In this document: piece by piece, positions 4,968 to 34,299 of the stretch
Position numbering within the stretch: the first letter of the stretch is position 1
Layout of the letters: every line of letters starts with the position of its first letter
Virus record (IMG/VR): IMGVR_UViG_3300033233_000003
Origin: an uncultured virus (IMG/VR IMGVR_UViG_3300033233_000003)
Lineage: Duplodnaviria > Heunggongvirae > Uroviricota > Caudoviricetes
Length of the DNA: 64,000 nt
Reading direction: 5' to 3' (one strand)
Program-made: the position numbers and the translations under genes
Notes under the pieces: generated by a model
Told to the model about the DNA's origin: nothing
What the model saw: the letters and a program-made list of their open reading frames with translations, nothing else
Databases searched by the model: none

Positions 4968-4970
4968 GAC

Positions 4971-17025: not shown

Positions 17026-17183
17026 GGCTATGAGGGAAGGGCGGGAAGTGGGATGGTGGATTGCGGTGCGCGGGGGAGACGATCTTTGCCGTCTAGGCGA
17101 GTGAGGGCCGACACCGCGCTCCGGCGCGCGGACTGCCGTTTCGGATGCTGGCGCATCCTCCTCTCGCGTGCTCCCGATGGTCG
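17026..17183 (-). repeat. ~160-bp structured intergenic element, copy 1; purine-rich tail at 16922-17025 on the + strand
   Basis: Core GGCGCGCGGACTGCCGTTTCGGATGCT and box CTCCCGATGGTCG, both shared by six copies. Confidence 0.95.
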
Positions 17184-17256
17184 CACCGAGGAACGGCAGG
17201 ATGCGCGTTTGTCTCGAAGCGGTGGGATGTGTTTGGGTGGGATGTGTTTGGCCGAG

Positions 17257-17841
17257 TCATGCTGGTGGACTGCCTGGGACCGGGGGGACGGCTTCGGGGC
17301 CCATGAGGGCGCCGCCGAGGCTCGCGATCACGTCCTTCGAGGGGGCAGTCGCCAGCGCTCCGATGCTGGTCGTGTCGGTGAGGATGGCCCAGCCGCTGCC
17401 GGGAGCCGCGGCCGCAGGCAATTTGGATGGCTGCACGGCGCGGATGACGAGGTCCTTCGGCATCGTGGGCAGCGTCCACAGGGTCGCGGGCGCGAGGATG
17501 GCGTTGCCGTTTTGGCTCTCCAGCGCCGCGAACTGGAAGCCTCGGTCGTTGCCCTCCTGGATCACCTCGACCTTGGTCATCTTGGCGGAGTTCGGGGTGT
17601 TGGGAGCGGGCTGGTGTTCGAGGCCGGTCGTCTTGTAGAGCACGAGGCTCGCGAGGATCTTGCCCGCGACGTCCGGATCGAAGCGCATCGCTCCGCGCAC
17701 GACGGACACGCCCTTTCGCTCGGTCTGAGAGGGAGGCTGCGGCGTGGTCGACGGCTTCTTCTTGGCCGATCCGAGCGCCTTGAGCGCGACGAAACCGATG
17801 CCGAGGGCGGCGAGGACGGGGATGATGATGGGGAGGGCCAT
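17257..17841 (-). CDS. N-terminally membrane-anchored protein
   Basis: MALPIIIPVLAALGIGFVALKALGSAKKK. Confidence 0.7.
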   Translation of the reverse strand: MALPIIIPVLAALGIGFVALKALGSAKKKPSTTPQPPSQTERKGVSVVRGAMRFDPDVAGKILASLVLYKTTGLEHQPAPNTPNSAKMTKVEVIQEGNDRGFQFAALESQNGNAILAPATLWTLPTMPKDLVIRAVQPSKLPAAAAPGSGWAILTDTTSIGALATAPSKDVIASLGGALMGPEAVPPVPGSPPA

Positions 17842-17895
17842 TTTTGCCGTTCCCTGACACGCGAGGATGTCAGGCGTTTTGCTTGGGTTTCGAGA

Positions 17896-18183
17896 CTAGA
17901 GCCTCTTGGTCATGATCTTGTCGTGGAGGTTGCGAAGGATCTTCTTGGCCGCCCTCTTGCGGATGGCCAGCTCTTCGCCGTCGGGGATCCAGCCCTGGAT
18001 CTTGTACTCGATGGGAGCGCGCTCTCTATGAGCGCGCCGCAGGAGCGCGCTCATGTGGAGATTGCTAGGCTCGCCGGACGTCGTGCCGGCTGTGCCTCGA
18101 TGATCGATCCACGAGACGTAGGCGACTGTCGAGAGGTTGTCGACGTAGCGAACGATCTCGGCCTTGGTGATTCTCTGGATCAT
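17896..18183 (-). CDS. Hypothetical protein
   Basis: TGATG coupling to the upstream gene. Confidence 0.6.
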   Translation of the reverse strand: MIQRITKAEIVRYVDNLSTVAYVSWIDHRGTAGTTSGEPSNLHMSALLRRAHRERAPIEYKIQGWIPDGEELAIRKRAAKKILRNLHDKIMTKRL

Positions 18184-18710
18184 CAGTGGAGCTTTCTCGC
18201 CACGTCGCCCGGTCGCTCGCCGCGCTTGTGGCTGGCGCGTACCCTGTCCTCGTTGTCGTTGACGATCCGCATCGCGTCGGCGAAGCGGTAGCGCATCGCC
18301 ATGAGGTTGCCGACGACGGCTGCGGCGAACGCGTCGGCGCTCGGGCAGGCGATCTCCGCGGTGCGTCCGGAATTGTACTTCGCGGGCGCGATCTGCTTCT
18401 CCCAGATCGCGATCGACATCGGCACCTCGCAGATCTCCCCGCTCGGCATTTTGAGCCAGAGCTTCTTCTGATGATCGTCCTGGCCGACGATGACGCCCAG
18501 CTCGCGACCGCAGCGGCCGTCGAGGGCCCAGCCGTGGCGGACGATCTCCTCGCTGTGTCCCTCGGCCCTCGCAGGCACGCCCTTGCAGTTCTGCTGACGT
18601 TGGTAGGAGTAGGCGACCGCGACGGCCTGGCCGCGAGGCTTGCCTTCACGGATTTCAGTGGCGATGTTGCGCGAGCGCGTTTTTGACGAGCAGCCTCGTT
18701 CGAGGGGCAT
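18183..18710 (-). CDS. Phage protein with an MPLxxG..S.NI..E..EG.P..QAVAVA N-terminal motif and the shared C-terminal helical module
   Basis: N-terminal motif familiar from small phage proteins; C-terminus resembles the ORFs at 24001, 24444 and 26785. Confidence 0.65.
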   Translation of the reverse strand: MPLERGCSSKTRSRNIATEIREGKPRGQAVAVAYSYQRQQNCKGVPARAEGHSEEIVRHGWALDGRCGRELGVIVGQDDHQKKLWLKMPSGEICEVPMSIAIWEKQIAPAKYNSGRTAEIACPSADAFAAAVVGNLMAMRYRFADAMRIVNDNEDRVRASHKRGERPGDVARKLH

Positions 18711-18712
18711 GG

Positions 18713-19345
18713 CTACTTGAATCCCTTCGGAGGTGTCCACTTCCAGCCTGCTTCGGAGAGCGCTTGGAGCGCAAGCTCGGCCTCGACGACTTCTCCGTAG
18801 CGACGATTGTCTTCGCCAGACTCCCCTCTGCCGAACACGATCGATCCGAGCGACGCGAGCGTGCGGTTGTTCTCGTCAACGAGGCGAGCCCAGAGGACCT
18901 CTCGAATGTCTTCGGGAGGGATGTCCCCGATGCTGTCCCAGCCCTCCGGATCATCTTCCCAGAACGTTCTCCAGCCGCGGTTGTAGGCTTCGTCTTCGGC
19001 TTCTGCAGCCTGCATCGCGCCGCGCATCCGGCCGTGGCGCTCAGTTTCTTTCTTCGGGTCGTGGCTCCATCCGGAGTTCTCCCAGAAGAATTTCGCTCGT
19101 CTCGCGAGATCTGGATCGTTTGGGTAGCACTTTTTGAAATCGGGGGCAGGTCCGCTCTTGCTCTTGCCGCTCGCCATGCCGGCTCCCTCCTCCGCGCGTT
19201 GACGAATCTTCTCGCTCAAGGGTTTGTCGCGCCAGGTCGCGCCGCACACCGCGGGCGCCCCGCCGAGTCGCTCCTTGGCGCCGCCGCTGGCTTCCACGCC
19301 GGCGACGCAGCGTTGCCACCAAAGCTTGGGGGGTCTCGGTGCCAT
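18713..19345 (-). CDS. Hypothetical two-domain protein (PPKxWWxRCV...AVCG N-terminus)
   Basis: Packed operon; acidic C-terminal domain. Confidence 0.6.
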   Translation of the reverse strand: MAPRPPKLWWQRCVAGVEASGGAKERLGGAPAVCGATWRDKPLSEKIRQRAEEGAGMASGKSKSGPAPDFKKCYPNDPDLARRAKFFWENSGWSHDPKKETERHGRMRGAMQAAEAEDEAYNRGWRTFWEDDPEGWDSIGDIPPEDIREVLWARLVDENNRTLASLGSIVFGRGESGEDNRRYGEVVEAELALQALSEAGWKWTPPKGFK

Positions 19346-19350
19346 CGTTT

Positions 19351-19755
19351 CTATCCTTGCAGCCATGGTGAGAGTGCTTCGAGGACTTCTTCGCCGGACA
19401 GGTTGCTGAAGCCGTCCTCTCCGAACGTCTCCTCGACGTCGGTGTCGCTATCCATGAAGACCTCGGCGTAGGGCTTGTGCACGAACACGTCTTTGTCTTC
19501 TCCGGTGTAGTCGGCCTTCTCGGGTTCCCGATCGAGGTCGTAGCCGTTTGCGCCGACGTAACCGAGTCCGCTGTTGCGCACGATGATGTAGGCGACGGTT
19601 CCGTCGTCCTCGACCAGCACGTCTACATCGTCGTGACTTCCGTGGCCACTCTCCAGCTCGTGGCGCTTGCCTGAGACCTTGATCACGATGTTGTCGTTCG
19701 GGTTGTAGTTTCCGCGAGGCATTCGCTCGACGGTCTTGAATCGGATGTCGCGCAT
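19351..19755 (-). CDS. Acidic hypothetical protein
   Basis: GAGG RBS; packed operon. Confidence 0.65.
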   Translation of the reverse strand: MRDIRFKTVERMPRGNYNPNDNIVIKVSGKRHELESGHGSHDDVDVLVEDDGTVAYIIVRNSGLGYVGANGYDLDREPEKADYTGEDKDVFVHKPYAEVFMDSDTDVEETFGEDGFSNLSGEEVLEALSPWLQG

Positions 19756-19758
19756 GGC

Positions 19759-20304
19759 TCAGCCTCGTCCTCTGGTGACGCCGGGCAAGCGCAGCTGGCG
19801 GCGTGTCAGCGCGGTTGACTTGGTGGGTCTGCGGATCGTGCCTGTCACGGGGTTCTCGATGGTGCCGTGGCCCCCTGCCGGGAGGTACTCGGCGCTCGAC
19901 AATCCCTTCTTGCCACGCTGGACGTGGGGCACGTCGCCACCCTTGTAGCGTTTGTGCCTGCTTCCCATGCGCAGCGTGTCGAGCTGGTCGATCTCGTTCT
20001 GCGTCTTGGGCTTGCCGTCGTTTCGCTTGACGAACAGCTCGTAGCGCGTCGTCTCGCCCGTGCGGTAGTCCTGCTCGTCTTCCGTGGTGAGCCAGTCGCC
20101 ATCGCTCGGACGGCTGCTCGACCATTCGAGCCAGCTGTTGTCCTTCACCGCGTCGATCACGGCGCCCATGGAGGTGTAGTCGTCTTTATGGTGGACGGTC
20201 GTCTCATGCTCGGGCTCGTCGTCGCCTTCTTCCCACGGTTGGGTGACCTCCTCGTACACGGTGACGTGGTAGGAGGTCTCGGGATAGTGTTTCTTCTGAG
20301 GCAT
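19759..20304 (-). CDS. Hypothetical protein (acidic N-terminus, basic C-terminus)
   Basis: Packed operon. Confidence 0.65.
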   Translation of the reverse strand: MPQKKHYPETSYHVTVYEEVTQPWEEGDDEPEHETTVHHKDDYTSMGAVIDAVKDNSWLEWSSSRPSDGDWLTTEDEQDYRTGETTRYELFVKRNDGKPKTQNEIDQLDTLRMGSRHKRYKGGDVPHVQRGKKGLSSAEYLPAGGHGTIENPVTGTIRRPTKSTALTRRQLRLPGVTRGRG

Positions 20305-20322
20305 CTGGCTTGGCTGTCGGGT

Positions 20323-20865
20323 TCAGGTCGTTCCGAAGGTTGGCTCTGCGCCCGGCGGCGGCGCGCCGAGCGTGAGGTCTCTCGGCGGGGTCACGTCGAC
20401 CACGTCGCGCGGCGCGAAGTTGACCTTGCCGCCGAGCGGAGGGCCGGCCGTGACCGGCTCGATCTTCTTGGTCGTCGCGTAGAAGAAGGCGGCCTTGTGG
20501 ATGTGACCCTGGTAGGCGGGGCCCGCGATGACGGTGTCGATCGTCGCGATCGCGAGCACGAGCGGACCGCCCGCCGGGGGCTTGAGCACGATCGCTGCGT
20601 CGCCGCCGACCTGCGCCATCGACGAGACCATGGTGTCGACCGCCGGATCGGCCGCCGGGACCACACCTGACGGTGTGATGTAGGTTGCCTTCCCTCCGCT
20701 GATGGATGCGGCTTCCGCGCGACTCAACACGCGGTAGCCACCCCACTCGCCGGGCGTGACGGGACCAGAGCCACCACCTCCGGTGATCTTCTTCGCGCGC
20801 CCGAGCAGGAGCGCCCCGACGCCGAGGGCGCCGATGACGAGGATGGGGACGATGGGGAGGGCCAT
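20323..20865 (-). CDS. N-terminally membrane-anchored protein, paralog of 20877-21380
   Basis: MALPIVPILVIGALGVGALLLG; shared YRVL.R.EA and GP..G..V.F.P..V. Confidence 0.7.
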   Translation of the reverse strand: MALPIVPILVIGALGVGALLLGRAKKITGGGGSGPVTPGEWGGYRVLSRAEAASISGGKATYITPSGVVPAADPAVDTMVSSMAQVGGDAAIVLKPPAGGPLVLAIATIDTVIAGPAYQGHIHKAAFFYATTKKIEPVTAGPPLGGKVNFAPRDVVDVTPPRDLTLGAPPPGAEPTFGTT

Positions 20866-20876
20866 GGGATTGCCTT

Positions 20877-21380
20877 TCAGGTCTCGATCACTTGCGGGGG
20901 TCCGAACTTCACCACCGTGCCGTCGGCGGGGCCGCCGTCGTCGAGGAATAGCTCCGCACCCTCTTCGGTGAGCTTGGTCTCCGCGTTGGCGATCGTCGCG
21001 ACGTAGAGAGGAATGCCGAGCGTGGTCGGTTCGATCGTGCTGACTTTGGCGCCCTTGAGGAAACTTTGGTGCGTCGTCGTGTTCTGCAGCGCGATGAGTA
21101 CCGTGGTGCCGACGGAGACCGCCTCACGCGCCTTGGCATCGAGCACGGCGTCGTCCGGCATCGGCTTTCCCGGCATCATGGTGGCCCACAACGTCGCGAG
21201 CTTCGGGACGGTCCTCATCGCCTCCGAACGCAAGAGCACGCGATAGGGTCCGGGGTCACCCTTGCTCGGCGTGAGCGCGATGCTTCCCTTGGGAAGCTGC
21301 TTTGACTTCTTCGAGGAGGCGAGCGCGAGCGCGCCTACGCCGACCACGACGAGCAGCGGCACGAGGATGGGGATCGCCAT
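20877..21380 (-). CDS. N-terminally membrane-anchored protein
   Basis: MAIPILVPLLVVVGVGALALASSKK; same motifs as its neighbour. Confidence 0.7.
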   Translation of the reverse strand: MAIPILVPLLVVVGVGALALASSKKSKQLPKGSIALTPSKGDPGPYRVLLRSEAMRTVPKLATLWATMMPGKPMPDDAVLDAKAREAVSVGTTVLIALQNTTTHQSFLKGAKVSTIEPTTLGIPLYVATIANAETKLTEEGAELFLDDGGPADGTVVKFGPPQVIET

Positions 21381-21389
21381 TCGGCAAAT

Positions 21390-21818
21390 CTACCACAGCG
21401 GGGTCGCGTCGGGGAACGCGAGCGTCGCCATCTTGCGGAGACTCTGCTCTCCGCGCGCCTTGAACATTCCGGGTTCAAAGGCGTCGAGGATGACGGTGCC
21501 GCCCATGTCCATGTCGACGACGAGCGAGCTGACGAGCGATCGCACCGCCGTGTTGAGGTGCGAGTACCCGGCCTCTTTGGTGATCTTCTTGCCGGGTCGC
21601 AGGTCGACGAAGTCGACGTTCGGGTCGTCGAAGAGGTCCTTGCCGTGCATCCACCTGCCGCGGCGCACGCCGTCGCGCAGCACCGAGACGTGGATGTAGA
21701 GCGGGCTCGTGAGGTCGAGGTAGATCCAGGCGAGGTCGTAGTCGCCGCTGCCGTCGTCAGCCGTGCGCATGACGTAGACCCAGGAGTCGCCGCTATTGCC
21801 GGAAGAGACGGTGCTCAT
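21390..21818 (-). CDS. Hypothetical protein
   Basis: 142-aa ORF that fits the operon. Confidence 0.55.
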   Translation of the reverse strand: MSTVSSGNSGDSWVYVMRTADDGSGDYDLAWIYLDLTSPLYIHVSVLRDGVRRGRWMHGKDLFDDPNVDFVDLRPGKKITKEAGYSHLNTAVRSLVSSLVVDMDMGGTVILDAFEPGMFKARGEQSLRKMATLAFPDATPLW

Positions 21819-21895
21819 TTCGACGTGCCTTGTGTGAGGAGGTAGACGTGGAGCTTGTGCCTGCGGCCGTTCGCCCAGTTGATGCGACCGTGCCG

Positions 21896-22192
21896 CTAGT
21901 CATCCATGCGCACGCGAACTTCGATGGTCTGGCCACGCTTGTGACGATGAACCGCGAGCTGTACGTCACCGTCGAGGTCGCCGGAGTGTCGCGCGAGCGC
22001 GTCGCGGAGTCGTCGGTCAGCCTGCGTCGCGTTCTTCGCGATGCCGAACTTTCTCATCTCCGTGTCCTCTACGCCGATGCTCTCCACGTCGAAGATGAAC
22101 GGGATCTGCTCCTCGACGAGCCAGGCGACGACCTCGCGAAGTACAGCGTTGATCGCTCGATTGATCCTCTCCCCTGATCTTCTCGTGGACAT
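21896..22192 (-). CDS. Hypothetical protein
   Basis: GGAGGA RBS before MSTRRSGERINRAI. Confidence 0.6.
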   Translation of the reverse strand: MSTRRSGERINRAINAVLREVVAWLVEEQIPFIFDVESIGVEDTEMRKFGIAKNATQADRRLRDALARHSGDLDGDVQLAVHRHKRGQTIEVRVRMDD

Positions 22193-22218
22193 GGTTCTTC
22201 CTCCGTTTCTCTGCGCGC

Positions 22219-23199
22219 TCAGCGCGTCGTGAGCTTCGCGGCGACGAGCCCGAGCCCCAGCATGCCGAGGATGAGGAATGGCATCTCTCCGCTCGGCTCG
22301 GCAGGGCGCATCACGTCGAGCACGGGTTTTGCGATCTTCGGCGGCGGTGCCTTCGTCGATCCGGGGACGGTCGCCGGCTTGCCCGGTGTCGTCGTGGATC
22401 CTGGCCAAGGCAGCGCGACGTTGGGGTAGCGAAGTTCGAGCGGACCTTCGTCGCTGAGCAGCGGGAAGAACTTGGGGTGCCTCGCGATCCACATCAGGTC
22501 GACGGCGTCGGAGCCGGTCGGGCCGGTCAAAAGTCCCTTCCGTGATGCGTACTGCTCCTTGTGGGAATAGTCCGGGTCGTAGTCGGCCTTGTGCCCAGAA
22601 TAATCCTTCTGCACGAAGTCGAGCGGCAAGGCGTCGCTCACGAGGCCGCCCTGGATGGCGAGGCTCCCGAGCGGGTAGCCCCGTCGGTTCACGAGCGTCT
22701 TCTGTCCGCCTTCGGCGAGTTTTTGTCCTCTTTGGATTCCCTTGGCGGCGTAGATCTTCTCTCGCCGGGCAAAAGCGTCGATCCAGGCGCCGGTGCTCTC
22801 GATGTCGCCAGGGATGCCGCCGGTCTTGTACCAAGGGAATCCGGGCGTCTGGAACGGGATGCGGCTGGCTGCGGTCCCGATGTCGCGGAGCATCTTGCGT
22901 GTCGGCATCACCGCGTAGAGGTCGTCTGCGACAGCCTGCGCGTTGTCCGCGAAGAGGCCGACGGGGAAGGAGTCGGCGTCCGTGCCGAGCGCGAGTCCGT
23001 CGGGCATCACCGGGTAGGTGAGCGTCCACTTCTCTCCGTCGATGGTGTCGGAGACGGTGATGGGGATCCACGGAAGGGTGACGATCCAGCTCGGGACCTC
23101 GCGGTTCTTCCAGCCGGCCATGATCAGCGCTTGACGTTCGGCGCCTCGCTTGTCTGCGAGGAGCTTCGCCCATTCTGCGCCGGTGCGGATGGCCATCAC
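22219..23199 (-). CDS. Conserved-looking hypothetical enzyme-like protein with a C-terminal transmembrane anchor
   Basis: VMPDGLALG..AQAVAD..PTRKM..DYSH; Pro/Thr linker; FLILGMLGLGLVAA tail. Confidence 0.65.
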   Translation of the reverse strand: MMAIRTGAEWAKLLADKRGAERQALIMAGWKNREVPSWIVTLPWIPITVSDTIDGEKWTLTYPVMPDGLALGTDADSFPVGLFADNAQAVADDLYAVMPTRKMLRDIGTAASRIPFQTPGFPWYKTGGIPGDIESTGAWIDAFARREKIYAAKGIQRGQKLAEGGQKTLVNRRGYPLGSLAIQGGLVSDALPLDFVQKDYSGHKADYDPDYSHKEQYASRKGLLTGPTGSDAVDLMWIARHPKFFPLLSDEGPLELRYPNVALPWPGSTTTPGKPATVPGSTKAPPPKIAKPVLDVMRPAEPSGEMPFLILGMLGLGLVAAKLTTR

Positions 23200-23678: not shown

Positions 23679-23731
23679 GATGATTTTCTACCTTACGTGG
23701 ATGATGAACAAGAGGGAGAGGGAGAGCGAGA

Positions 23732-23888
23732 GGCTACGAGGGAGGGCTGGGGAGTGGGCGGGTGAAGTGTGGTGCGCGGGGGGAGGTGGTCGCCGTGATC
23801 GAGGCGAGTGAGGGCCATCACCGCGCACGGGCGCGCGGACTGCCGTTTCGGATGCTTCGCATCCTTTTTTCGCGCCTCCCGATGGTCG
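23732..23888 (-). repeat. ~160-bp structured element, copy 2
   Basis: Same core and box. Confidence 0.95.
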
Positions 23889-24000
23889 GCCGGTGAAGTA
23901 GCGGTGAGGGTCGACATCGCGCACGTGCTGCTCGGTCGCGCGCTCCTGTTGGTCGCGCCGATCGAGAGGGATGGAAGGTTGGGATGAGGTCTGGTGGGGG

Positions 24001-25281: not shown

Positions 25282-25283
25282 GA

Positions 25284-25716: not shown

Positions 25717-25811
25717 TTTCTTTTCCTTGTAACGCGGTGGCCCTCGGCGCCGCTGGGTCCCTGACATGCGTACTCGGCGAGGTGATTCTCGTGAGCTGTG
25801 ACGTTCCCGTC

Positions 25812-26207: not shown

Positions 26208-26587
26208 CCCACTTTGCCTCCGCGCCAGGGCATGTTGTCGAGAGCGATGAGGCAGACGCTCATGAAACGATCGGCCGCGGCGATCGTGCCGAGGAGCGTC
26301 GGCGGGATCGCTAGCATCAGGATCTCGCGGATCTTCTCGACGACGGGAGGCTCCTTCGGAGGGTTCTCCATCTCGGCGAGGATCTTGAAAAGGTGGCTAG
26401 TCATCCTCGACCTCGTGTGGAGGAGGTCTTCGCAGAGGGTCTCCTGGACGAGCGACGAGCAATGGCTCGACCTCGTCTGCGAAGCTGTGCGCGACGGTCG
26501 TGTGCCATTCGCTGTCGCGGGATGAGGAAGGAGAAGGAGAAGGAGAAGGAGACGGAGAAGGAGACGGAGAAGGAGACGGAGACGAGA

Positions 26588-26766
26588 GGCTATGAGGGAA
26601 GGGGGAGGAGTGGGGCGTGGGATCGTGGTGCGCGGGGGAGGCGGACACTGCGCTCGAAGGCGAGAGAGCCGACACCGCGCACGGGCGCGCGGACTGCCGT
26701 TTCGGATGCTTCGCATCCTTCTCTCGCGCCTCCCGATGGTCGGCCAGAAGCGCCTCCCGATGGTCG
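26588..26766 (-). repeat. ~160-bp structured element, copy 3, with a duplicated CTCCCGATGGTCGGCCAGAAG box
   Basis: Same core; box present twice; GGAGA(A/C) tail at 26521-26587. Confidence 0.95.
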
Positions 26767-26784
26767 GCCAGAAGGGTTGGGCGG

Positions 26785-27099: not shown

Positions 27100-27107
27100 G
27101 TGTGACC

Positions 27108-27503: not shown

Positions 27504-27535
27504 GGTGCTTCTCCTCAGTCGTTAGTCGTCAGTCG

Positions 27536-28225
27536 TCAGTCGACGTGGATCTTCTTGTCGTCGCCGACGTAGATGTAGGAGCCGCCGTAGGCCTTGGATG
27601 CCTTGGTCAGGATCTCTCCGTCCCTCTTCGGCCAATCGCCGTCCCAGAAGCCCGCACCGTGACCGTTGCGGGTGAGCCAGAAGTCGTGTCCGGCCAGCTC
27701 CTCGCGGCCCAAGATGAGCGCGGCGTTCTCCTTCGCGAAGCCGTCTGTGTCCTTGCGCATCTTCTTGAGGGAAGCCTTCGCGATGTCGCCTGGGCCATAG
27801 TTCGCGTCGAGGGGGCTGCCGCCCGACTCGTCGGCGTTGTCGGTCTCGGCCCACAGCGCAGTGGTCACGTAGGCGTCGAAGAATGCGTCGAGGTCGACCT
27901 TCTTGCTGACGTTGCCGATCGCGTGGTCGATCGACTTTTGCAGCATCCGCGCGATCTTCTGCAGCTCGGCGATCTCACTGTCTCCCCAGCCGGTTCGCTC
28001 GCGACCTGCCTTGGTCTTGGCGACGGAGATGTCCTTCTCGATGTTGCCGAGGCATCCTTCGACGGTCGAGAGGGCGACCTCGCGGCTCTTGTCCATCCAG
28101 CTCGATCCGCATGCGTAGATCGGGTCGCCCATGGAGGAGTGCCAGTGCGAGAGCATCTCCGCCAGCTCGCGGCGGTTGCCCTCGGGATAGACCTTGACGC
28201 CGATCTCGGGTGATTCCTTGGCCAT
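27536..28225 (-). CDS. Phage protein with a GHDFWLTRNGHGAGFWD domain
   Basis: Motif familiar from phage hypothetical proteins; GGAGG RBS; function unknown. Confidence 0.7.
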   Translation of the reverse strand: MAKESPEIGVKVYPEGNRRELAEMLSHWHSSMGDPIYACGSSWMDKSREVALSTVEGCLGNIEKDISVAKTKAGRERTGWGDSEIAELQKIARMLQKSIDHAIGNVSKKVDLDAFFDAYVTTALWAETDNADESGGSPLDANYGPGDIAKASLKKMRKDTDGFAKENAALILGREELAGHDFWLTRNGHGAGFWDGDWPKRDGEILTKASKAYGGSYIYVGDDKKIHVD

Positions 28226-28258
28226 GGCTTAGATCTTCGCCTCCGGGTCGAGCATGGC

Positions 28259-28573
28259 TCACCTGCTCAGGAAAGCGACGCCGTTGTCGCTCAGTTCTTG
28301 GATGGTGTCTTCTAGCTCTCGACCTGTGGCGAGATCTTTGAGCGCAAAGGCGTGGACTCCGCTCCAATGAAGCGCATCGAGAGCGGCGTCGGCAGATTCG
28401 TAGAAATCGTCACTCTTGTAGGCGTCCTTGGCCTGATCGCGCATCATTTTGTTGGCCGCAGCGTCAGCCTTTTTCGCGGTCGTCGCGATGACGTTCAGGA
28501 AGGGATCGCTCTCTGACCACCATATGGCCGCGGAGTAGATGACCGTGTTTCCGTTGATCTTGCGCTTGCTCAT
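28259..28573 (-). CDS. Hypothetical protein
   Basis: AAGGA before MSKRKING. Confidence 0.6.
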   Translation of the reverse strand: MSKRKINGNTVIYSAAIWWSESDPFLNVIATTAKKADAAANKMMRDQAKDAYKSDDFYESADAALDALHWSGVHAFALKDLATGRELEDTIQELSDNGVAFLSR

Positions 28574-28608
28574 CAGCCGATCCTTCTCCCGGTTCTTCTC
28601 CCGGTTCT

Positions 28609-29232
28609 TCAGTCGATTCGTCTTCCTGTTCGCCCGTCGAATGTCGCGACCACGCGGTAGCCGTAGCCGGGCACTCGATAGTGAGCCGTGAGCAGGATCG
28701 TACCATCGGCGGCGGCCTCCGTCTCCGTCTTCGTCTCGACGAGCGAACCTTTGCGGCTCTCCTTGAGGATCGATCCGGGGAACCACGATTTGCTTTGAAC
28801 CTTCTGGCCGTCCCGCTCCAGCTCTCGGACGATGGCCGTGATGCCGCCGCGCCGATCGAGCACGTGGATCTCAGCCGGTGGTTTTTGAACCATTCGGGCG
28901 CGAACGCCTCTCTCGTCTGTGACGGCGTCGCCGAGGGGACACGTCTCGCAGTCGGCCCAGTGGTCGAACGAGATCTGCGCGGCCAGGCTGTCCGCGCTCT
29001 GGCCCAAGAGGAAGTTGCGCTCGATGAGGATCTCCTGCGGCTTCATGCGCGCGACCACTTCGGCTTGGCTCAGGCCGCCGAGACGCATGGCCTCGATCAT
29101 CACGCGCGTGGCGTACGCTTGGAACGTCTCGGCCGAGCCGAGCCGCTTCGCCACACGCGCGGCACGACCGCTGCCGATGGACGCAGGAGCTGGTTTCTTT
29201 TCCGACACCTGGGTGGGTCGTTTTCCTAGCAC
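28609..29232 (-). CDS. Hypothetical protein with a divergent copy of the shared helical module
   Basis: FQAYATRVMIEAMRLGGLSQAEVVARMKPQEILIERNFLLGQSADSLAAQI. Confidence 0.55.
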   Translation of the reverse strand: MLGKRPTQVSEKKPAPASIGSGRAARVAKRLGSAETFQAYATRVMIEAMRLGGLSQAEVVARMKPQEILIERNFLLGQSADSLAAQISFDHWADCETCPLGDAVTDERGVRARMVQKPPAEIHVLDRRGGITAIVRELERDGQKVQSKSWFPGSILKESRKGSLVETKTETEAAADGTILLTAHYRVPGYGYRVVATFDGRTGRRID

Positions 29233-29296
29233 GAATTTCAGCTTTCGACGCGGTCACCTTTGATGCCGGAGAGGGAGAGGAGAGAGGAAGACGAGA

Positions 29297-29454
29297 GGCT
29301 ATGAGGGAAGGGTGGGAAGTGGGACGGGGGAAGCATGGTGCGCTGGAAGATTGTCGCCGGCTGTCAAATCGAGTGAGGGCCGACACCGCGCACGGGCGCG
29401 CGGACTGCCGTTTCGGATGCTTCGCATCCTCCTTTCGCGCGCTCCCGATGGTCG
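29297..29454 (-). repeat. ~160-bp structured element, copy 4
   Basis: Same core and box. Confidence 0.95.
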
Positions 29455-29461
29455 CGCCCAA

Positions 29462-30121
29462 CTATGATTCGTTCAGTTGGCTGATGATGTCGACCAGGAC
29501 CTTCTGCTGGTCAGGATTGAGCACGGCCAAGATGCCGGACAGCTGCGGCGGATCGAATGTGGCGAGGAGCGATCGAAGCTGTTTCACCAAGATGTGGTCG
29601 ATCGAGGCGTCCCAAATCTGAAGGAACATGGCATCGCTGGTTCTCGCCGTGATGGCGCTCATGACGACGGGCACGTACCGCATCACCGCCTGGAACGCTT
29701 TCTCCTTTCTCTCCTCCCAGGCTGCGGCTTGTTGCGCGCGCTCGTTTTCCTGTTTGACCGCCTCGACGGGCTCGATGCCGACGGCGCCGCCGAGCGTCAC
29801 CGGCGACATCGACCTGTTCGCGAACCAGAGGACGAGCGTCTTCGGGCCGCGATGCTCGCCGATGTAGCCGCCGCAGGTCGCCTCGCTGCGCCCGAGTGTC
29901 CTCACGATGAAGAAGTTGCCCGGAAGGCCCTCTGTGTCTCCCTCGTCGAGGTGCACGGTCAGGTAGCCGGAGAAGAAGTCCGGGAGCGTGAGGAAGCGGG
30001 CTACCTCTCCCTCTTTGATCTCGATCTCGACCTTCACTCGCTCGGCGTCTTCGCCGCCGCTGGCGTACGGGAGGTAGGTGCGGGGGAGGGAGCGGAATTT
30101 GATGTGAGGGGAGGGGGTCAT
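29462..30121 (-). CDS. Hypothetical protein; C-terminus paralogous to 30351-31361
   Basis: WEERKEKAFQAVMRYVPVV...PPQLSGILAVLNPDQQ. Confidence 0.65.
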   Translation of the reverse strand: MTPSPHIKFRSLPRTYLPYASGGEDAERVKVEIEIKEGEVARFLTLPDFFSGYLTVHLDEGDTEGLPGNFFIVRTLGRSEATCGGYIGEHRGPKTLVLWFANRSMSPVTLGGAVGIEPVEAVKQENERAQQAAAWEERKEKAFQAVMRYVPVVMSAITARTSDAMFLQIWDASIDHILVKQLRSLLATFDPPQLSGILAVLNPDQQKVLVDIISQLNES

Positions 30122-30178
30122 GGGTTTGTTGCTCCGAGAGGGAGACGAGAGGGAGACGAGAGGGAGACGAGAGCTAGA

Positions 30179-30336
30179 AGCTATGAAGGAGGGGTGGGGA
30201 GTGGGGGCGTGGGACAGCGGCGCGCTGAGAGGGAGGCTTTGCGATCGAGGCGAGTGAGGGCCGGTACCGCGCACGGGCGCGCGGACTGCCGTTTCGGATG
30301 CTGGCGCATCCTCCTTTCGCGCCCTCCCGATGGTCG
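30179..30336 (-). repeat. ~160-bp structured element, copy 5
   Basis: Same core and box; GAGAGGGAGAC x3 tail. Confidence 0.95.
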
Positions 30337-30350
30337 GGCCGAGAGGTGCG

Positions 30351-31361
30351 TTATTCGTCCTTCTTCGTCGGCTCGGTCTTCTCTGCCTGTTCCTTGGCCT
30401 CCTTTTCGGTGAGGAACATCTCGATGGCGGTGCCCTTGAGCACCGTCATCGGGGTGAAGGGCTCGGAGACATCCTTGTGGTCGAGCCTCTCTTCAGTCTT
30501 CGCGATGCGCTCCTTCTCCTTCTCCTTGTCGGTCTCTTCCGCCTGCATGATGAAGTCCATCGCGCTCGCGAGCGTCGCCTGCTGGATCGTGTCGAGCGGA
30601 GCCATCATGCCTTCGAGCTGCTGGGGCTTGAGCGACTTCAAGAATCCCTTGATGCCTTCGATCAGCACCTCCGGGTGCTCCTTGATCATCTTCGGGCCGC
30701 CGTACTTCTTGACGAGCGTCTGGAAGACGATCGGCACGTAGCCCATCAGCCCCTCGAAGGCGCGCTCCTTCTTGTCCTCCCAGAAGAGCGTCTTGCGCAG
30801 ATCCAAGTTGCGCAGGTGCTGATTGTTCATCATCTCGTCTTGGAGCCGCACCATGCCGCTGCGCTCCTCCTCCAGCTCCTTGATTCGGATGGTCTGCTCC
30901 TTGTTGGTCTCCATCAGGTTGCGCATGAGCTGGTTCGCCCACGGCACCGCCGCCTTGACCACGCCGTCGACGATGCGCATCTGCTGGGCTTTTTCGCCGC
31001 GCGCGGTCGGGCCCTCGCTCCGCTCGTCATCGCCCTCGTCGTCGTCAGGCTGCGGGTGGACGTAGACGCGTTTGCGTCGCCCATAGCTCCAGTTGTCGCC
31101 GCGGTTTTCTCCGAAGTAGCCCGCATAGAGGTACTCCTGGGTGGTCTTCGCGCCCTCGGCGTCGCCCTCGGCCATCTTGATCAGGTCGTCGATGGTCTTC
31201 TCCAGCGGCGTGTCCGGCTTGATGTCGACCGCGTCGACTGGCACGACCTTGCGGTCGTCCTTCACATGCAGGCACGCGATCACCCTGCAGTCGTCGCCTC
31301 GATGACCCTCGCGCATGCAGGAGTCGACCCACGTGCGAAGCTCCGCCCGAGAGATGTTCAT
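30351..31361 (-). CDS. Coiled-coil hypothetical protein
   Basis: 336 aa; WEDKKERAFEGLMGYVPIV...PQQLEGMMAPLDTIQQ. Confidence 0.7.
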   Translation of the reverse strand: MNISRAELRTWVDSCMREGHRGDDCRVIACLHVKDDRKVVPVDAVDIKPDTPLEKTIDDLIKMAEGDAEGAKTTQEYLYAGYFGENRGDNWSYGRRKRVYVHPQPDDDEGDDERSEGPTARGEKAQQMRIVDGVVKAAVPWANQLMRNLMETNKEQTIRIKELEEERSGMVRLQDEMMNNQHLRNLDLRKTLFWEDKKERAFEGLMGYVPIVFQTLVKKYGGPKMIKEHPEVLIEGIKGFLKSLKPQQLEGMMAPLDTIQQATLASAMDFIMQAEETDKEKEKERIAKTEERLDHKDVSEPFTPMTVLKGTAIEMFLTEKEAKEQAEKTEPTKKDE

Positions 31362-31447
31362 GTTTGCCCCTTTTGCTCGACCGTCTTCCGTGCACTATCG
31401 ACAGATTCAAATATCTAAATAGTTGAATGCATCGATGGGATCGTAGG

Positions 31448-31678
31448 TTACCTGATTCCCTTCGCCTTGGAAGGAGATTTTGTGCCGCCTCGTGAGGCGG
31501 AGCCGCCTCGTTGAATGGTGTTGCGCAGTCGATCGTTCTCCTTGCGCAGCTGGCCGTTCTCGGCGTGCAGGCGTTGGTGCTGCCACTGCATGCGTTCGAG
31601 CGCGACGATGGCCTCGGCCAAGATGTTGCGGGTGGCCTTGGCGGCGTCGCCGTTCGGAGCGATCTCACGCCTCGCCAT
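31448..31678 (-). CDS. Small coiled-coil protein
   Basis: LHAENGQLRKENDRLR heptads. Confidence 0.55.
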   Translation of the reverse strand: MARREIAPNGDAAKATRNILAEAIVALERMQWQHQRLHAENGQLRKENDRLRNTIQRGGSASRGGTKSPSKAKGIR

Positions 31679-32212
31679 GTGGCACCGGAGACCCGTTCTC
31701 GACCACGAGCTTGGCGCCGAACTTCTCGGCCATCTTCTCGCCGACGGCGGTCGCTTTGTCGAGCGTCGGATAGTGCCGGATCAGGTGCTCGGGCCTCGGG
31801 CCGTAGCGGACGGCATATCCGGCAGCTTCGTGGCTGACTCGGACCTCGGTCGGTGGGAAGAGGACGCGGACCTTCTCGAAATGCAAATAGCCTCGTCTTT
31901 TTGGTTTTTCGATTTGACCATCACCGCCGCGCATCTGAGGTCCTTGTATGTTATTGAACAGGTGATGGCATCGAGACGCCTCGAAGATCTCGACTCCACG
32001 TCGACGTACGCGGACTCCAGCCCGGGCGCTCGCGCGCTCGCGCCTCGATCTTGGTCGCCGTGTGTTTGGCTTCGCTCTTCGTGAACCTCTTCGCGTTGCC
32101 GAGCCAGCGCCACTCGCCGGTCATCCAGAGCGCGGCGCGCTCGTACCATTTTCCGTAACCGGGTTTGAGCTTGATTGCGATTGCGTAGTTTTTCTTGGAC
32201 ACGGCGATTCCT

Positions 32213-32995
32213 CTACTCGGCCTTGCTCGCCGAGAACGCCTGCTTTGCGCTCACGACCTTCGTCAGGAGCCAGCCGGCCGCGAGCAGGCCGCAGATGATG
32301 AGGACTGGCGTGAAGTATTCCCCGAAGAGTGCCTTGCCCGCTCCTTTGAAGAGCGGCGGGATGAGACCCGGCACCGTGGTCTCTTCGAGCTTCTTCTGGG
32401 AGGGCTTTCCGCTGAGGTCTGTGAAACGTCCGTGGAAATCGTTGTACGTCCTCTCGTAGGGGATCACCTCGTTGACCACGAGCGCGGGTCCGGTGACGGG
32501 TCCCCAGGACGACATGTCGTCGGGGTATCCGACCGACTTCTTGTAGACCGACCACCTCGTCGTGAACTCGCCGTAGTCCTTCGCGAACTTCTGCTCGGCT
32601 GCGATCTGTGCCGCGCTCTTATCCTTGGCGCGCGCTCGCATCTCGTCTGCGTTTCTTCGCAGCTCGGCTGCTTTCCCAGGAAAATACTTCGACGCAGCCG
32701 ACGCTTCCCACGCCGTGGCCGCAGCTTCCAGGGCCACAGGATCTCCCCACACGAACTGGTTGTGCATGTCGTTGTCCAACGCCACGATCGCAAGGTCCAC
32801 GCGCTTGACGGCTCGGAAGGCATCTTCCTTGGACACGACGGCCGGCAGGGTTTCCCTCGTACTGCTGCCACCACCGATCGCTCTCAGCTCGATGCCGGGC
32901 CGCGCAGCGCCAGTCCTCGTGCGTACGAGCAGCGACGATGTCGTGGGGGCGCTCGGCGCCGATCGGGTGCGGGCGAGCGCGCTCTGTCCAGCCAT
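32213..32995 (-). CDS. Helical protein with a C-terminal transmembrane segment
   Basis: GAGGA RBS before MAGQSAL; PVLIICGLLAAGWLL. Confidence 0.6.
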   Translation of the reverse strand: MAGQSALARTRSAPSAPTTSSLLVRTRTGAARPGIELRAIGGGSSTRETLPAVVSKEDAFRAVKRVDLAIVALDNDMHNQFVWGDPVALEAAATAWEASAASKYFPGKAAELRRNADEMRARAKDKSAAQIAAEQKFAKDYGEFTTRWSVYKKSVGYPDDMSSWGPVTGPALVVNEVIPYERTYNDFHGRFTDLSGKPSQKKLEETTVPGLIPPLFKGAGKALFGEYFTPVLIICGLLAAGWLLTKVVSAKQAFSASKAE

Positions 32996-33262
32996 CGTGG
33001 AATCCTCGCACAGTTGTGTCGTCGAGGCGAGTGCCTTCAAGGCTGTGACTTCGAGCGACGGCGTCCCCTTAGCGCCCCTTGAAGTGGTGCTCGACTACCT
33101 CATGGAGCATCGCCTGCAGCCGTCTCTTCGTCTCGGTCGGATCCTCACCGTGCTCGATCGACTCGGCGAGCAGCTCCTCGTCGGTCATGTTCTCGACCTC
33201 GTCGGCGAGCGCTTCGTAGAGTTTCGCGAGACGCCAGTCAGTGGCTAGGGCGGCGGGACGTG

Positions 33263-33748
33263 TCATCGCGCGAACCTCGCGAGGCTCTTGCCGAGCACCT
33301 TCTTCAGCGGTGCGCTGTCCATCACGTCGCGGGCCGTGCTCGGGAAAAATTCGCTCTCGCACTCGATCTGAAATCCACAAGCGGCGGCGGAGCCGACCGC
33401 GTTTGGATCGTCGAAGACGATGGGCTTGTTCGCGACGATGGCCTGGTAGGTGAGGTCCTTCTGGGATCGGCTCGACAGCGTTTCGTAGAACTCGTAAATT
33501 GGACGCGCGCTCGCGGAAAGCTCCTCGGGCTCGTCGGAGAGGACGACGGACGGTGGCAAGTTTGTCATGTCCGAGAGCTGGAAGCGGTTCATCGTCAGAT
33601 CGCCGTCCTCATCGTCGAGCGGCTTGCCGAGTGGCTGGAGCATGCCGCGATGGTGAAGATAGGCGATGACGACGGCGGCGTTGACGCTCAGCGGATGCGG
33701 ATCGCGCCAGATGACCGTGAGCGAGCGGATCCTTCCCCTGGCGCTCAC
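33263..33748 (-). CDS. Hypothetical protein containing a covariant hairpin copy
   Basis: Coupled to its neighbours; PNAVGSAAA peptide. Confidence 0.55.
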   Translation of the reverse strand: MSARGRIRSLTVIWRDPHPLSVNAAVVIAYLHHRGMLQPLGKPLDDEDGDLTMNRFQLSDMTNLPPSVVLSDEPEELSASARPIYEFYETLSSRSQKDLTYQAIVANKPIVFDDPNAVGSAAACGFQIECESEFFPSTARDVMDSAPLKKVLGKSLARFAR

Positions 33749-33981
33749 GGGTCGTCTCCGTCGGGAAAGAGCAGCGACGTGATCGCGAAGAGGGAGATCC
33801 AGAGCGGCCAGAGCACGCAGATGAAGATCCAGGCGGCGGTGACTAGCGGCGCCGGAGGCGACCGCGTTGGAACGGTCGTGCGACCGACTCCCTCTTCTTG
33901 ACGCTTCGCTCGGATCATCGCGAACGCGACAGGCAGCGCGATGAAGAGGTCGATGAAGAGGTAGGTGGCGAGGGTCTTCAT
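33745..33981 (-). CDS. Small two-TM membrane protein; the loop contains a hairpin copy
   Basis: Two hydrophobic segments flanking PTRSPPAPLV. Confidence 0.6.
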   Translation of the reverse strand: MKTLATYLFIDLFIALPVAFAMIRAKRQEEGVGRTTVPTRSPPAPLVTAAWIFICVLWPLWISLFAITSLLFPDGDDP

Positions 33982-34038
33982 GATCGGGCTGGAGCGGGAG
34001 GGCGAGAGGAGAGCGAGAGAGGGAGAGGGAGAGCGAGA

Positions 34039-34299
34039 GGCTGCGAGGGAGGGTCGGGGAGTGGATCGTGGGATCGCGGGACGCTCAGAGACGATCTTTG
34101 CCGTCTAGTCGAGTGAGGGCTGATACCGCGCTCCTGGCGCGCGGACTGCCGTTTCGGATGCTGGCGCATCCTCCTCTCGCGCCTCCCGATGGTCGGCCAG
34201 GAGAGCACCTCCCGATGGTCGGCCGGGAGAGGGACTGTTGCGTGGTCACCTTTCGCGCCTCCCGATGGTCGGCCGGGAGAGGGCGCCTCCCGATGGTCG
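34039..34299 (-). repeat. ~160-bp structured element, copy 6, with four CCTCCCGATGGTCGGCC boxes
   Basis: Same core; box repeated 4x in 34182-34302. Confidence 0.95.

Follow-up and report, generated by a model that had tools for sequence, protein, structure and literature searches.

A modular intergenic cassette repeated six times in the leftward gene array of an uncultured virus, with a putative role at transcription-unit boundaries

The IMG/VR record IMGVR_UViG_3300033233_000003 represents an uncultured virus assigned to Caudoviricetes, and a 64,000-nt stretch of it (hereafter the window) was analyzed here for a repeated intergenic element. The minus strand of the window holds six full, same-direction, non-coding cassettes of ~210-320 bases each (c1 to c6), whose anatomy, positions, composition and mosaic conservation can be read directly from the letters. 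We tentatively favor the view that the cassette is a composite transcription-unit boundary, i.e., a terminator plus a promoter between successive units, which we regard as possible and somewhat short of probable. We infer from the sequence that RNA is produced across the cassette, that Rho or another factor may act on it and that the 3' motif may serve as a promoter.

Anatomy, conservation and placement of the six cassettes

All six copies were found where a previous sequence-only reading had placed them, and the parts listed there follow one another in the same order in every copy. The positions which that reading gave as starts are the plus-strand positions of a TAGCCT-like hexamer, that is, the minus-strand 3' end of each copy. 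The 11-mer GAAACGGCAGT has six exact matches, all on the minus strand, plus two one-mismatch matches elsewhere in the window (eight in total vs. a shuffle mean of 1.09; 0 of 100 shuffles reached 8), and GGATGC-N3/4-GCATCC occurs six times in the window against 0.04 expected. The box core CGACCATCGGGAG has ten exact matches, all on the minus strand and none outside the six copies (one each in c1, c2, c4 and c5, two in c3 and four in c6). A covariance model (R1) built from the 94-nt core of the cassette scored the six copies at 111-117 bits and added two degenerate partial copies, with nothing else convincing in the window.

Read 5' to 3' on the minus strand, each cassette begins with one to four boxes, each consisting of an invariant 13-nt core with ~22 nt semi-conserved around it; tandem boxes are spaced 24-28 or 50 nt apart. 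A purine-rich linker, GCGCGAGAGGA, leads from the box to hairpin 1 (GGATGC-loop-GCATCC; loop GAA in c2-c4 and GCCA in c1, c5 and c6), which the invariant GAAACGGCAGT joins to hairpin 2 (CCGCGC-loop-GCGCGG; loop GCCCGT in c2-c5, GCCGGA in c1 and GCCAGGA in c6). These loop variants are as described in the earlier reading, and the single variant of CTCACTCG that it mentioned lies in c3. On the 3' side of hairpin 2 stand TGTCGGCC-CTCACTCG, a spacer whose sequence drifts almost at random while its length is held, four C-tracts (CCCACTYCCCNNCCYTCCYTC), (C)RYAGCYT, a CT-rich microsatellite and the next start codon.

The C[AG][TC]AGC[CT]T motif lies 81-83 nt beyond the end of hairpin 2 and 148-151 nt from the proximal box. 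The near-constant spacer length proposed previously was thus borne out, with 74-76 nt instead of 72-74 nt between the starts of CTCACTCG and the hexamer. The hexamer itself, present in all copies, varies: TAGCCT is found in four of them, TAGCTT in c5 and CAGCCT in c6, with the A, G, C and final T unchanged in all six. Together with an upstream hexamer it forms a conserved bipartite motif, CCCACT-16 nt-(T/C)AGC(C/T)T, whose 16-nt spacing is constant in 6/6 copies and which was never seen apart from the hairpin module. The microsatellite differs in unit and length among copies according to Tandem Repeats Finder (TRF), with periods of 11 in c1, 6 in c3 (the longer unit reads 12 nt), 13 in c4, 11 in c5 and 6 in c6 (also 14 and 20); no tandem array was called by TRF in c2.

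Between the box and CTCACTCG, the copies are on average 90% identical in pairwise comparison; the average is 78% in the C-tract and hexamer and 48% in the spacer (minimum 27%), in line with the variable spacer sequence noted before. None of the copies has a particularly close partner (overall identity 71-82%). Such a mosaic, without any closely matching pair, is more indicative of selection acting on certain segments than of recent duplication.

The individual copies, all on the minus strand, are arranged as follows. c1 (16922..17183; covariance model score 112.6 bits) has its box at 17171-17183, hairpin 1 at 17143-17158 (loop GCCA), GAAACGGCAGT at 17132-17142, hairpin 2 at 17114-17131, CTCACTCG at 17098-17105, the C-tract, whose complement is a G-quadruplex (G4) motif, at 17034-17052, CATAGCCT at 17025-17032 and a CT microsatellite at 16928-17027 (period 11, 9.2 copies), followed by the ATG of the next gene at 16921. 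c2 (23679..23888; 117.1 bits) has its box at 23876-23888, hairpin 1 at 23850-23864 (loop GAA), the invariant GAAACGGCAGT at 23839-23849, hairpin 2 at 23821-23838, CTCACTCG at 23805-23812, the C-tract/G4 complement at 23740-23758, CGTAGCCT at 23731-23738 and the next ATG at 23678. Just upstream of c2 lies one of the degenerate partial copies (23900..23962, minus strand; 16.6 bits, E 0.13), which carries a box-like CGACCAACAGGAG (a two-mismatch box at 23943-23955) and remnants of hairpin 2 and CTCAC, and lacks both hairpin 1 and the invariant 11-mer. In c3 (26509..26766; 112.9 bits), two boxes 24 nt apart (26754-26766 and 26730-26742) precede hairpin 1 (26704-26718), GAAACGGCAGT (26693-26703), hairpin 2 (26675-26692), the variant CTCTCTCG (26661-26668), the C-tract/G4 complement (26596-26621), CATAGCCT (26587-26594) and a CT microsatellite (26527-26582; period 6, 9.3 copies); the next gene may start either at ATG 26508 (36 codons) or at ATG 26404.

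c4 (29233..29454; 116.3 bits) contains a box at 29442-29454, hairpin 1 at 29415-29429, GAAACGGCAGT at 29404-29414, hairpin 2 at 29386-29403, CTCACTCG at 29370-29377, the C-tract/G4 complement at 29305-29323, CATAGCCT at 29296-29303 and a CT tract at 29269-29297, and the next start is probably, with some uncertainty, GTG 29232. c5 (30122..30336; 113.3 bits) contains a box at 30324-30336, hairpin 1 at 30296-30311, GAAACGGCAGT at 30285-30295, hairpin 2 at 30267-30284, CTCACTCG at 30251-30258, the C-tract/G4 complement at 30191-30213, CATAGCTT at 30178-30185 and a CT repeat at 30135-30173 (period 11, 3.5 copies), with the next ATG at 30121. The longest copy, c6 (33982..34299; 111.2 bits), has four boxes (34287-34299, 34259-34271, 34209-34221 and 34183-34195), among which a degenerate partial core was detected at 34221-34278 (minus strand; 30.4 bits), then hairpin 1 at 34156-34171, GAAACGGCAGT at 34145-34155, hairpin 2 with a 7-nt loop at 34126-34144, CTCACTCG at 34110-34117, CGCAGCCT at 34038-34045, a CT tract at 33991-34040 and the next ATG at 33981.

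As previously stated, every copy lies, in the direction of the genes, in a gap between minus-strand open reading frames (ORFs), here called by GC content at third codon positions (GC3). c3-c6 start 8-21 nt past the upstream stop codon, c1 73 nt and c2 112 nt past it, the partial copy at 23900-23962 sitting in the gap between the stop codon and c2. In c1, c2, c5 and c6, an ATG follows the hexamer at 53-104 nt, and the starts after c3 and c4 are ambiguous. The blocks between copies measure 0.9-6.7 kb, the longest (c2 to c1) comprising eleven tightly packed genes, and c5 is flanked by two tandem paralogs (30% identity over 86 aa). Nearly all GC3-called genes between positions 3 and 36149 are on the minus strand, with a few weak plus-strand calls; a plus-strand gene block follows, and motif and covariance-model searches of this block (36-64 kb) found no copies. 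The description of the genes in the blocks as orphans is well founded, as none of the 37 candidate ORFs located at 16.2-36.1 kb reaches the Pfam gathering score and 2 of 34 match PHROGs, both in function-unknown families. Two coding interpretations of the cassette itself were discarded: the small ORF from the ATG in hairpin 1 runs for 42, 14, 171, 42, 42 and 63 codons in two frames with no conserved peptide, and the ATG of a plus-strand ORF from CTATG is ACG in c2 and GCG in c6.

Composition, folding and the proposed boundary function

The six 78-nt segments with the highest C-minus-G value on either strand of the 64 kb are the six copies (3' halves, mRNA sense). They contain 43-49 C and 4-8 G (C-G 37-42), against 27 in the runner-up and a mean of ~2 in the window (standard deviation 7.4). 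RNA transcribed between hairpin 2 and the start codon would have a C content of 42-54%, a G content of 11-16% and a pyrimidine content of 67-81%. Rho utilization (rut) sites are described by C/G >1 over 78 nt, as required by RhoTermPredict, a C every 11-13 nt and at least 70-80 nt of ribosome-free RNA (PMC6407284). C/G is 5.8-11.5 in the six 78-nt segments, and the C spacing of 11-13 nt can be set beside the TRF periods of 11 (c1, c5), 13 (c4) and 6 (c3, c6), none being called in c2. Four phage records (G001, G002, G004 and G005) have no comparable C>G segments, their maximum C-G being 25-33 vs. 37-42 here. In c1-c5, the plus-strand sequence opposite the conserved C-tract matches a canonical G4 motif (four runs, G3+ N1-7); the C-tract of c6 misses the strict rule by one 10-nt loop. 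Five of the seven canonical G4 motifs found on both strands of the window lie in copies, and the minus strand has none.

Intrinsic termination signals were not detected on the minus strand of any copy, and neither hairpin is followed by a U-tract in the sense direction. The sole intrinsic-terminator call within the copies is hairpin 1 of c2 on the opposite strand, followed by TTTTTT, and such sites are not enriched between 16 and 36 kb (17 vs. 17.0 expected). A rut-like tract, boxes and hairpins, and no enrichment of intrinsic terminators argue for a factor-dependent terminator. A sigma-70 promoter scan found no consensus in any copy; the two sites that it gave at 16-36 kb both lie outside the cassette core (GC 68-73%), one of them adjoining the c4 box on its upstream side. 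No sigma-54 or extracytoplasmic function (ECF) promoter motifs were seen by eye in the element. The hexamer keeps the A (position 2) and T (position 6) of the -10 hexamer in 6/6 copies. Since rut sites need no conserved sequence, and since the 3' motif keeps these -10 positions and a fixed distance to the box, it is read as a candidate promoter. Of the three roles offered by the sequence-only reading, that of transcription or a leader fits the position, co-orientation, bipartite motif and C-rich tract, and recombination or cassette exchange found no support. The promoter role proposed there agrees with the fixed-spacing bipartite motif, but the hexamer is not the sigma-70 -10 consensus and there is no canonical promoter in any copy.

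With regard to RNA structure, Rfam covariance models, recommended by the sequence-only reading, gave no match at the gathering score over the 64 kb and none at E<=1 over 16800-34500, consistent with its statement that the element matches no recognised riboswitch or ribozyme. All 12 base pairs of both hairpins are identical in 6/6 copies. It is true, as was stated, that the stems are conserved while the loops vary, but such invariant stems provide no covariation evidence for a structured RNA. The RNAalifold covariation term was unfavorable (+1.22), with a double change in only 1 of 31 predicted pairs. Two antisense cores that were folded had z-scores of +0.15 and +0.69, no better than shuffles. 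Loop lengths vary (3/4 nt and 6/7 nt) with fixed arms. GCGNAGC/GCGNNAGC is described for DNA as a class of extraordinarily stable mini-hairpins (PMC13037366), and both variants of hairpin 1, GCGAAGC and GCGCCAGC, fit this rule, on the sense strand only. The shift of loop length with fixed arms and the mini-hairpin fit indirectly favor real hairpins over duplex operators. Larger structures were considered and rejected: a long-range GA/CT helix predicted by RNAalifold is broken in c2, with AC at three pairs and no compensation, and a closing helix, GCGAGAGG/CCUCACUCGC, shows one compensatory change (c3), retains only 4 bp in c2 and is unsupported. Read by eye, an extension of hairpin 2 is broken in c2, c5 and c6.

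As a transcription-unit boundary, the cassette might work in the following way. The copies would divide the ~36-kb leftward array into consecutive transcription units. When the ribosome leaves at the stop codon, the naked sense RNA of the upstream unit would expose the box or boxes, the twin stable hairpins and the C-rich tract. This 140-190-nt, C-rich, G-poor, unstructured tract with its periodic CU repeats would resemble a rut-like Rho loading site, and the 5' half plus the tract would constitute a conditional, factor-dependent (probably Rho-dependent) terminator. The box and hairpins would be the site where a phage or host factor chooses between stop and read-through, comparable to boxA/boxB at lambda nutR-tR1. 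CCCACT-16-(T/C)AGC(C/T)T would represent a phage-specific, non-sigma-70-consensus promoter, probably dependent on a phage factor, from which transcription would restart into the CU-rich leader of the next block. This proposal is consistent with the intergenic, gene-co-oriented copies, which start after stop codons and end at or near the next start codon.

Several points weigh against the proposal. As rut needs no conserved sequence, the conserved C-tract and the fixed spacing better fit a promoter half or a DNA structure. Unless overridden, a terminator immediately ahead of a start codon would shut off the next block, and Rho dependence presupposes a host that has and uses Rho. The hairpin stems never vary, so covariation is uninformative, and folding of the sense-strand cores is weak (z-scores of -0.3 to -2.6 vs. 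shuffles). On the promoter side, the -35-like CCCACT agrees with TTGACA at 2/6 positions only, the first base of the hexamer is C in c6, and the ~84 ORFs scanned with Pfam and PHROGs include no recognisable gene for a sigma factor, an antiterminator or an RNA polymerase. Finally, no homolog of the cassette was found in any relative compared. A bolder version of the proposal, to which we assign a rather low probability, is processive antitermination of a sequence-novel nut/put-like kind, in which one phage factor would simultaneously open or close all barriers of the 36-kb array in a phage replicating with a protein-primed polymerase. Its module, in at least six copies, would combine a factor-recruiting box and mini-hairpin pair, a very strong rut tract of a length tunable via the microsatellite, and a template-strand G-quadruplex.

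Among other explanations, a purely promoter-type cassette of a phage-specific (middle or late) class, with no role in termination, is rather unlikely. Here the box or boxes and hairpins would form an activator platform at 148-151 bp, CCCACT-N16-YAGCYT the core promoter and the CT tract a leader without a Shine-Dalgarno sequence. The distances that stay fixed despite a diverged spacer speak for it, as do the one to four boxes at 24-28 and 50 nt, which resemble tandem operator or activator sites, the A and T of the hexamer kept in every copy, the G4 motif adjoining the AT-richest spot of the element, and the conserved repeated promoters that head genes in the phage records G001 (13 copies) and G002 (three copies). 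Nevertheless, no copy carries a sigma-70 consensus, and no activator or sigma gene was identified among the ORFs scanned. The bipartite motif always accompanies the hairpin module and never occurs apart from it, and thus the promoter and hairpin functions cannot be told apart; in addition, starts just after stop codons and more than 100 nt of extreme C>G composition would be left unexplained. An improbable alternative is a transcribed cis-acting leader RNA that would start at the box, the twin hairpins serving as a put-like antiterminator or as a stability or processing element. Its invariant 13-nt asymmetric box (22 nt semi-conserved; ten copies) has the size of a promoter for a single-subunit RNA polymerase, and the box sequence CATC|GGGAG may resemble the start region of T7-class promoters of this kind. 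No RNA polymerase gene was found in the window scans. Two stem-loops come directly after the box, a pair of stem-loops also being described for put sites (PMC12360218). Distant elements encoding polymerases of the same family as that of the window carry intercistronic double-hairpin repeats (three copies in L013, two in L009), but the cassette shows neither covariation nor an Rfam match, and both the RNAalifold long-range helix (in c2) and the hairpin 2 extension (in c2, c5 and c6) are disrupted.

We consider it least likely that the cassette is a structural or recombination element acting at the DNA level, such as a hot spot for the homologous exchange of gene blocks, comparable to the promoter-early stem-loop (PeSL) cassettes, or a strand-specific signal in protein-primed strand-displacement replication, in which mini-hairpin and G-quadruplex would be priming or protein-loading sites. 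Such a role could be reconciled with six ~90%-identical 94-nt cores that flank unrelated orphan genes (c5 lying between tandem paralogs), with 5/7 of the G4 motifs of the window being in copies and all on the plus strand, with a GC skew that is positive over 1-56 kb whatever the gene direction, and with the presence of genes for a protein-primed polymerase and a DnaB-like helicase. Mini-hairpin motifs have also been reported at replication and transcription origins (PMC13037366). On the other hand, recombinase and integrase families are absent among the ORFs scanned with Pfam, no terminal inverted repeats or target duplications were apparent on reading the sequence, the plus-strand block at 36-64 kb has no copies, contig joints with 21-27-nt sides at the repeats are probably spurious, and the tight linkage to stop and start codons would have no explanation.

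Comparison with known systems and relatives

Returning to the boundary proposal, we compared the cassette with known phage elements. T4-type PeSLs are repeated terminator plus promoter cassettes that flank ORFans (PMC2839356, PMC4122927). Like the cassette, they are small, repeated, composite and co-oriented, occur in intergenic gaps beside ORFans in many near-identical copies per genome and have a stem-loop upstream of a promoter-like element (PMC2839356, PMC4122927). Stable stem-loops in repeated copies flanking ORFans are indeed present here (two perfect 6-bp stems in 6/6 copies), and the cassette contains no sigma-70 early promoter with an AT-rich upstream region. PeSLs, in contrast, combine an Escherichia coli sigma-70 consensus promoter, an AT-rich UP region and one terminator stem-loop (PMC2839356, PMC4122927), whereas the cassette has two hairpins without U-tracts, one to four boxes, a fixed 81-83-nt spacer, a G4-forming C-tract and a CU microsatellite, and is three to five times longer. 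Recombination between copies, known for PeSLs, was not observed for the cassette in the assembled contigs of one run.

Phage RNA signals such as boxA, boxB and put control Rho-dependent termination (PMC12360218). Lambda nutR-tR1 and HK022 put resemble the cassette in having a linear box and one or more short hairpins just past a stop codon, then C-rich, G-poor, Rho-loading RNA, and in forming a conditional barrier between early and later genes (PMC12360218). Reading the six copies revealed no sequence likeness to the boxA or boxB consensus, and no dedicated motif search was made. The loops here are GAA/GCCA and 6-7 nt, not a GNRA-like pentaloop as in boxB of lambda nut; moreover, the cassette has two hairpins and six copies in series, while nut has one pentaloop hairpin and occurs once per operon. 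No N-like, Q-like or Nus-related genes were recognised among the window ORFs scanned.

The box recalls the stoperators of cluster A mycobacteriophages, 13-nt asymmetric sites repeated in short intergenic gaps in one orientation to transcription (PMC9283540), except that stoperators stand alone and the box is always within a much larger cassette. Ten box cores were counted in the window, and stoperators number ~20-30 per genome. Hairpin 1, which reads GGAT-GCGAAGC-ATCC in c2-c4, resembles the N4 virion RNA polymerase (vRNAP) promoters, which have a GCGRAGC-type GC-rich heptamer between inverted repeats (PMC4496689, PMC13037366). The hairpin recognised in N4 is on the template strand (PMC4496689), while the purine-loop form of the cassette is on the coding strand (the template reads GCTTCGC), and three copies have a 4-nt loop, which leaves the heptamer in 3/6 copies. 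No match to vRNAP or another RNA polymerase family was found in the window. Given the purine-loop hairpin on the coding strand and the lack of a vRNAP gene in the window, the element does not appear to be an N4-type promoter. Integron attC sites were also considered: no integrase or recombinase Pfam match was found among the ORFs scanned (attC core motifs were not searched), and attC adjoins single-ORF cassettes, unlike the blocks of 0.9-6.7 kb with up to 11 genes observed here.

Taken together, the cassette would act like PeSLs or nutR-tR1 and, judged by these sequence-level comparisons, is a member of neither. We class it with the phage intergenic regulatory repeats, among which its mini-hairpins, G4-forming tract and CU microsatellite are unusual additions, and regard it as a well-documented, lineage-specific repeat of putative regulatory function. 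The expression organization of large uncultured phages, which are rich in function-unknown genes, is barely known, and such a long modular repeated cassette, with a separately testable box, twin mini-hairpins, spacer, C-tract and microsatellite, could offer a first handle on the transcription program of a lineage with protein-primed polymerases. If the C-rich tract is a phage-controlled Rho loading site, it would be a new, sequence-unrelated case of regulated termination, and if the copies also promote block exchange, they would help explain the shuffling of orphan genes. A description of this element was not found in the literature, subscription journals being outside the coverage.

Relatives of the cassette were sought in several data sets. 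The exact 23-mer GCATCCGAAACGGCAGTCCGCGC had no match in viral, genome or metagenome contigs, and blastn of 16900-24800 against phage records gave none either. The R1 model reached a best E of 2.5 in 80 metagenome loci encoding relatives of the protein-primed polymerase (the 78 viral-contig polymerase loci L081-L158 lay outside this scope), and nothing better than E 0.45 in eight loci around a 483-aa structural protein and five whole viral records. No relative was found in genome contigs scanned with one polymerase relative, and the search with the intein-bearing helicase was dominated by intein matches. In the assembled contigs of one metagenome run, possibly from the source sample, contigs end at the repeats and there are hints of further copies outside the window; the joints between contigs seen at the repeats extend over 21-27 nt on their short side and are probably artifacts.

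Distant elements of the polymerase family (30-48% identity) carry intercistronic repeats of their own. L013 has three copies of a 71-nt unit consisting of a stop codon, two hairpins, a Shine-Dalgarno sequence and an ATG, and in L009 a multi-hairpin unit that terminates at an ATG occurs twice, with a compensatory change in one stem (GAGAGGC/GCCTCTC vs. GAAAGGC/GCCTTTC). The 10-mer CCGAAACGGC, common to the cassette and the L013 repeat, was dismissed as coincidence because by our own estimate it occurs at about the chance rate, being present once each in four unrelated loci of 158. A repeat in L001 proved to be a coding N-terminal duplication, and polypyrimidine/polypurine runs of >=18 nt are not common to the relatives that encode the polymerase. 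In L013, a dense non-coding region (4860-5420) immediately past the polymerase gene on its downstream side contains three further repeat families, among them four copies of GTTCCYCGCACAAGGGAATCGCGCGC, and may be an origin or control region. In L016, ten copies of a 37-nt hairpin repeat, GTCCCGACAACCATCCAATCGGGCATCG, lie at 12961-13937, within 1 kb of the contig end and beside the protein-primed polymerase gene, and may represent the terminal repeat region of a linear genome; the CCCGA...TCGGG arms of this repeat loosely recall the CCGA-CCA-TCGG core of the cassette box.

Repeated promoters were seen in large phage records that have only the 483-aa protein in common with the window. In G001 (183 kb, CheckV completeness 100%), 13 co-oriented copies of TTGATT-16-TATGAT-6-ATG (-35, -10 and start codon; loci L169-L178) were found, 11 of them fused to ORFs of 22-215 codons. 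The ~50-nt cassette of this record, CTCCTTGATTTC-N8-ATCATTATTATGATCATTGT-ATG (e.g., in L170 around record positions 33117 and 34038), looks like a repeated promoter for leaderless genes, and the palindrome overlapping it is possibly an operator. G002 has three copies of a sigma-70-like TTGACT-17-TATCAT. Since G001-G005 lack the protein-primed polymerase, they provide only a general phage precedent. Repeated, well-conserved expression signals at gene heads are common in large phages, and what distinguishes the cassette is its size, its modular construction and the lack of a consensus promoter.

Genome context and a second hairpin repeat

The window (GC content 59-66%) is part of a 188,059-bp contig, and its sequence is present in a single run, labelled sediment metagenome; no RNA run was listed as containing it. 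At 45072-49034 on the plus strand, it encodes a protein-primed family-B DNA polymerase with a LAGLIDADG intein (PF03175, E 5e-40), 29-36% identical to tectivirus polymerases, and at 13692-16148 on the minus strand a DnaB/RecA-like ATPase (the DnaB-like helicase), also with an intein. The intein-less relative of the latter, P0124 (503 aa, 61% identical), carries PF03796 and PF13481. LAGLIDADG/Hint inteins are thus present in both proteins, and the polymerase likewise has an intein-less relative (P0002; 834 aa, 90% identical); P0002 and P0003 are polymerases of 82-90% identity to that of the window. Further genes of the window encode a DnaQ-like exonuclease, an M23 peptidase, a DNA methylase and a nucleoside deoxyribosyltransferase (phrog_12607, E 1e-48). 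An insertion sequence-type transposase (SWIM zinc finger and DDE_Tnp_1) is encoded at 61137-62420 on the plus strand, and its nearest Atlas clusters are mostly from Acidobacteriota, and also from phages.

The 483-aa protein (2300-3751, minus strand) has 1909 homologs at E<=0.001, nearly all 480-490 aa in length and 45-75% identical, on contigs of up to 366 kb. In its structural model (pLDDT 72.9), residues 70-295 form a ConA-like lectin/glucanase sandwich (Z 17), and there is a second beta domain. Among viral proteins it best matches an uncharacterised one from an uncultured tailed phage (E 4.5e-26), with lower-ranking matches that include 'minor tail' and receptor-binding proteins; the 483-aa protein is probably a conserved tail or receptor-binding component. 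Homologs are labelled Polyangiales in two NCBI records of metagenome-assembled genomes, and this label and that of Acidobacteriota are weak host leads. On account of this protein and of two tail-fibre-like paralog families at 6-13.6 kb, the source has the appearance of a large phage or of a linear element resembling one; capsid, terminase and tRNA genes were not identified in the window. The first family (6263-8242 and 9560-11362, minus strand) shares an N-terminal domain (76% identity over 109 aa) and has different C-termini, as does the second (11385-12005, 12076-12879 and 12917-13597, minus strand; 55-63%), a layout that appears to be the pattern of exchangeable tail-fibre or receptor-binding genes. 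A Laminin_G_3 protein (8246-9358, minus strand) adjoins them. At the left end of the window, a large protein (3-2288, minus strand) with tandem repeats of 34 aa (102 nt) and 135 aa (405 nt) runs past the boundary, and at 42941-44035 on the plus strand, a 364-aa protein with 30% Lys+Arg and KKPx 12-nt repeats has a histone-H1-like or DNA-binding look. Plus-strand GC skew is positive nearly throughout 1-56 kb whichever way the genes run, suggesting that the window has a strand bias linked to replication, and AT skew flips with gene direction at ~36-42 kb.

Besides the cassette, the window contains a second repeat family, the 23-nt hairpin ACGCGGTCGCCTTCGGCGCCGCT, with 14 matches at <=3 mismatches vs. 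0 expected. It is located at 12879-12901, 15828-15850, 25169-25191, 25732-25754, 33380-33402, 33845-33867, 39511-39533, 41456-41478, 42820-42842, 57239-57351 (four tandem 30-nt units) and 57646-57668, and also at 58145-58197. Most copies are co-oriented with the local genes, and at least two (25732 and 57646) are on the opposite strand. It folds into an 8-bp stem with a bulged T that is not followed by a U-run, and the copy at 33380 shows a compensatory C-G to G-C swap. Because its reading frame differs from ORF to ORF, this hairpin appears to be a nucleotide-level signal.

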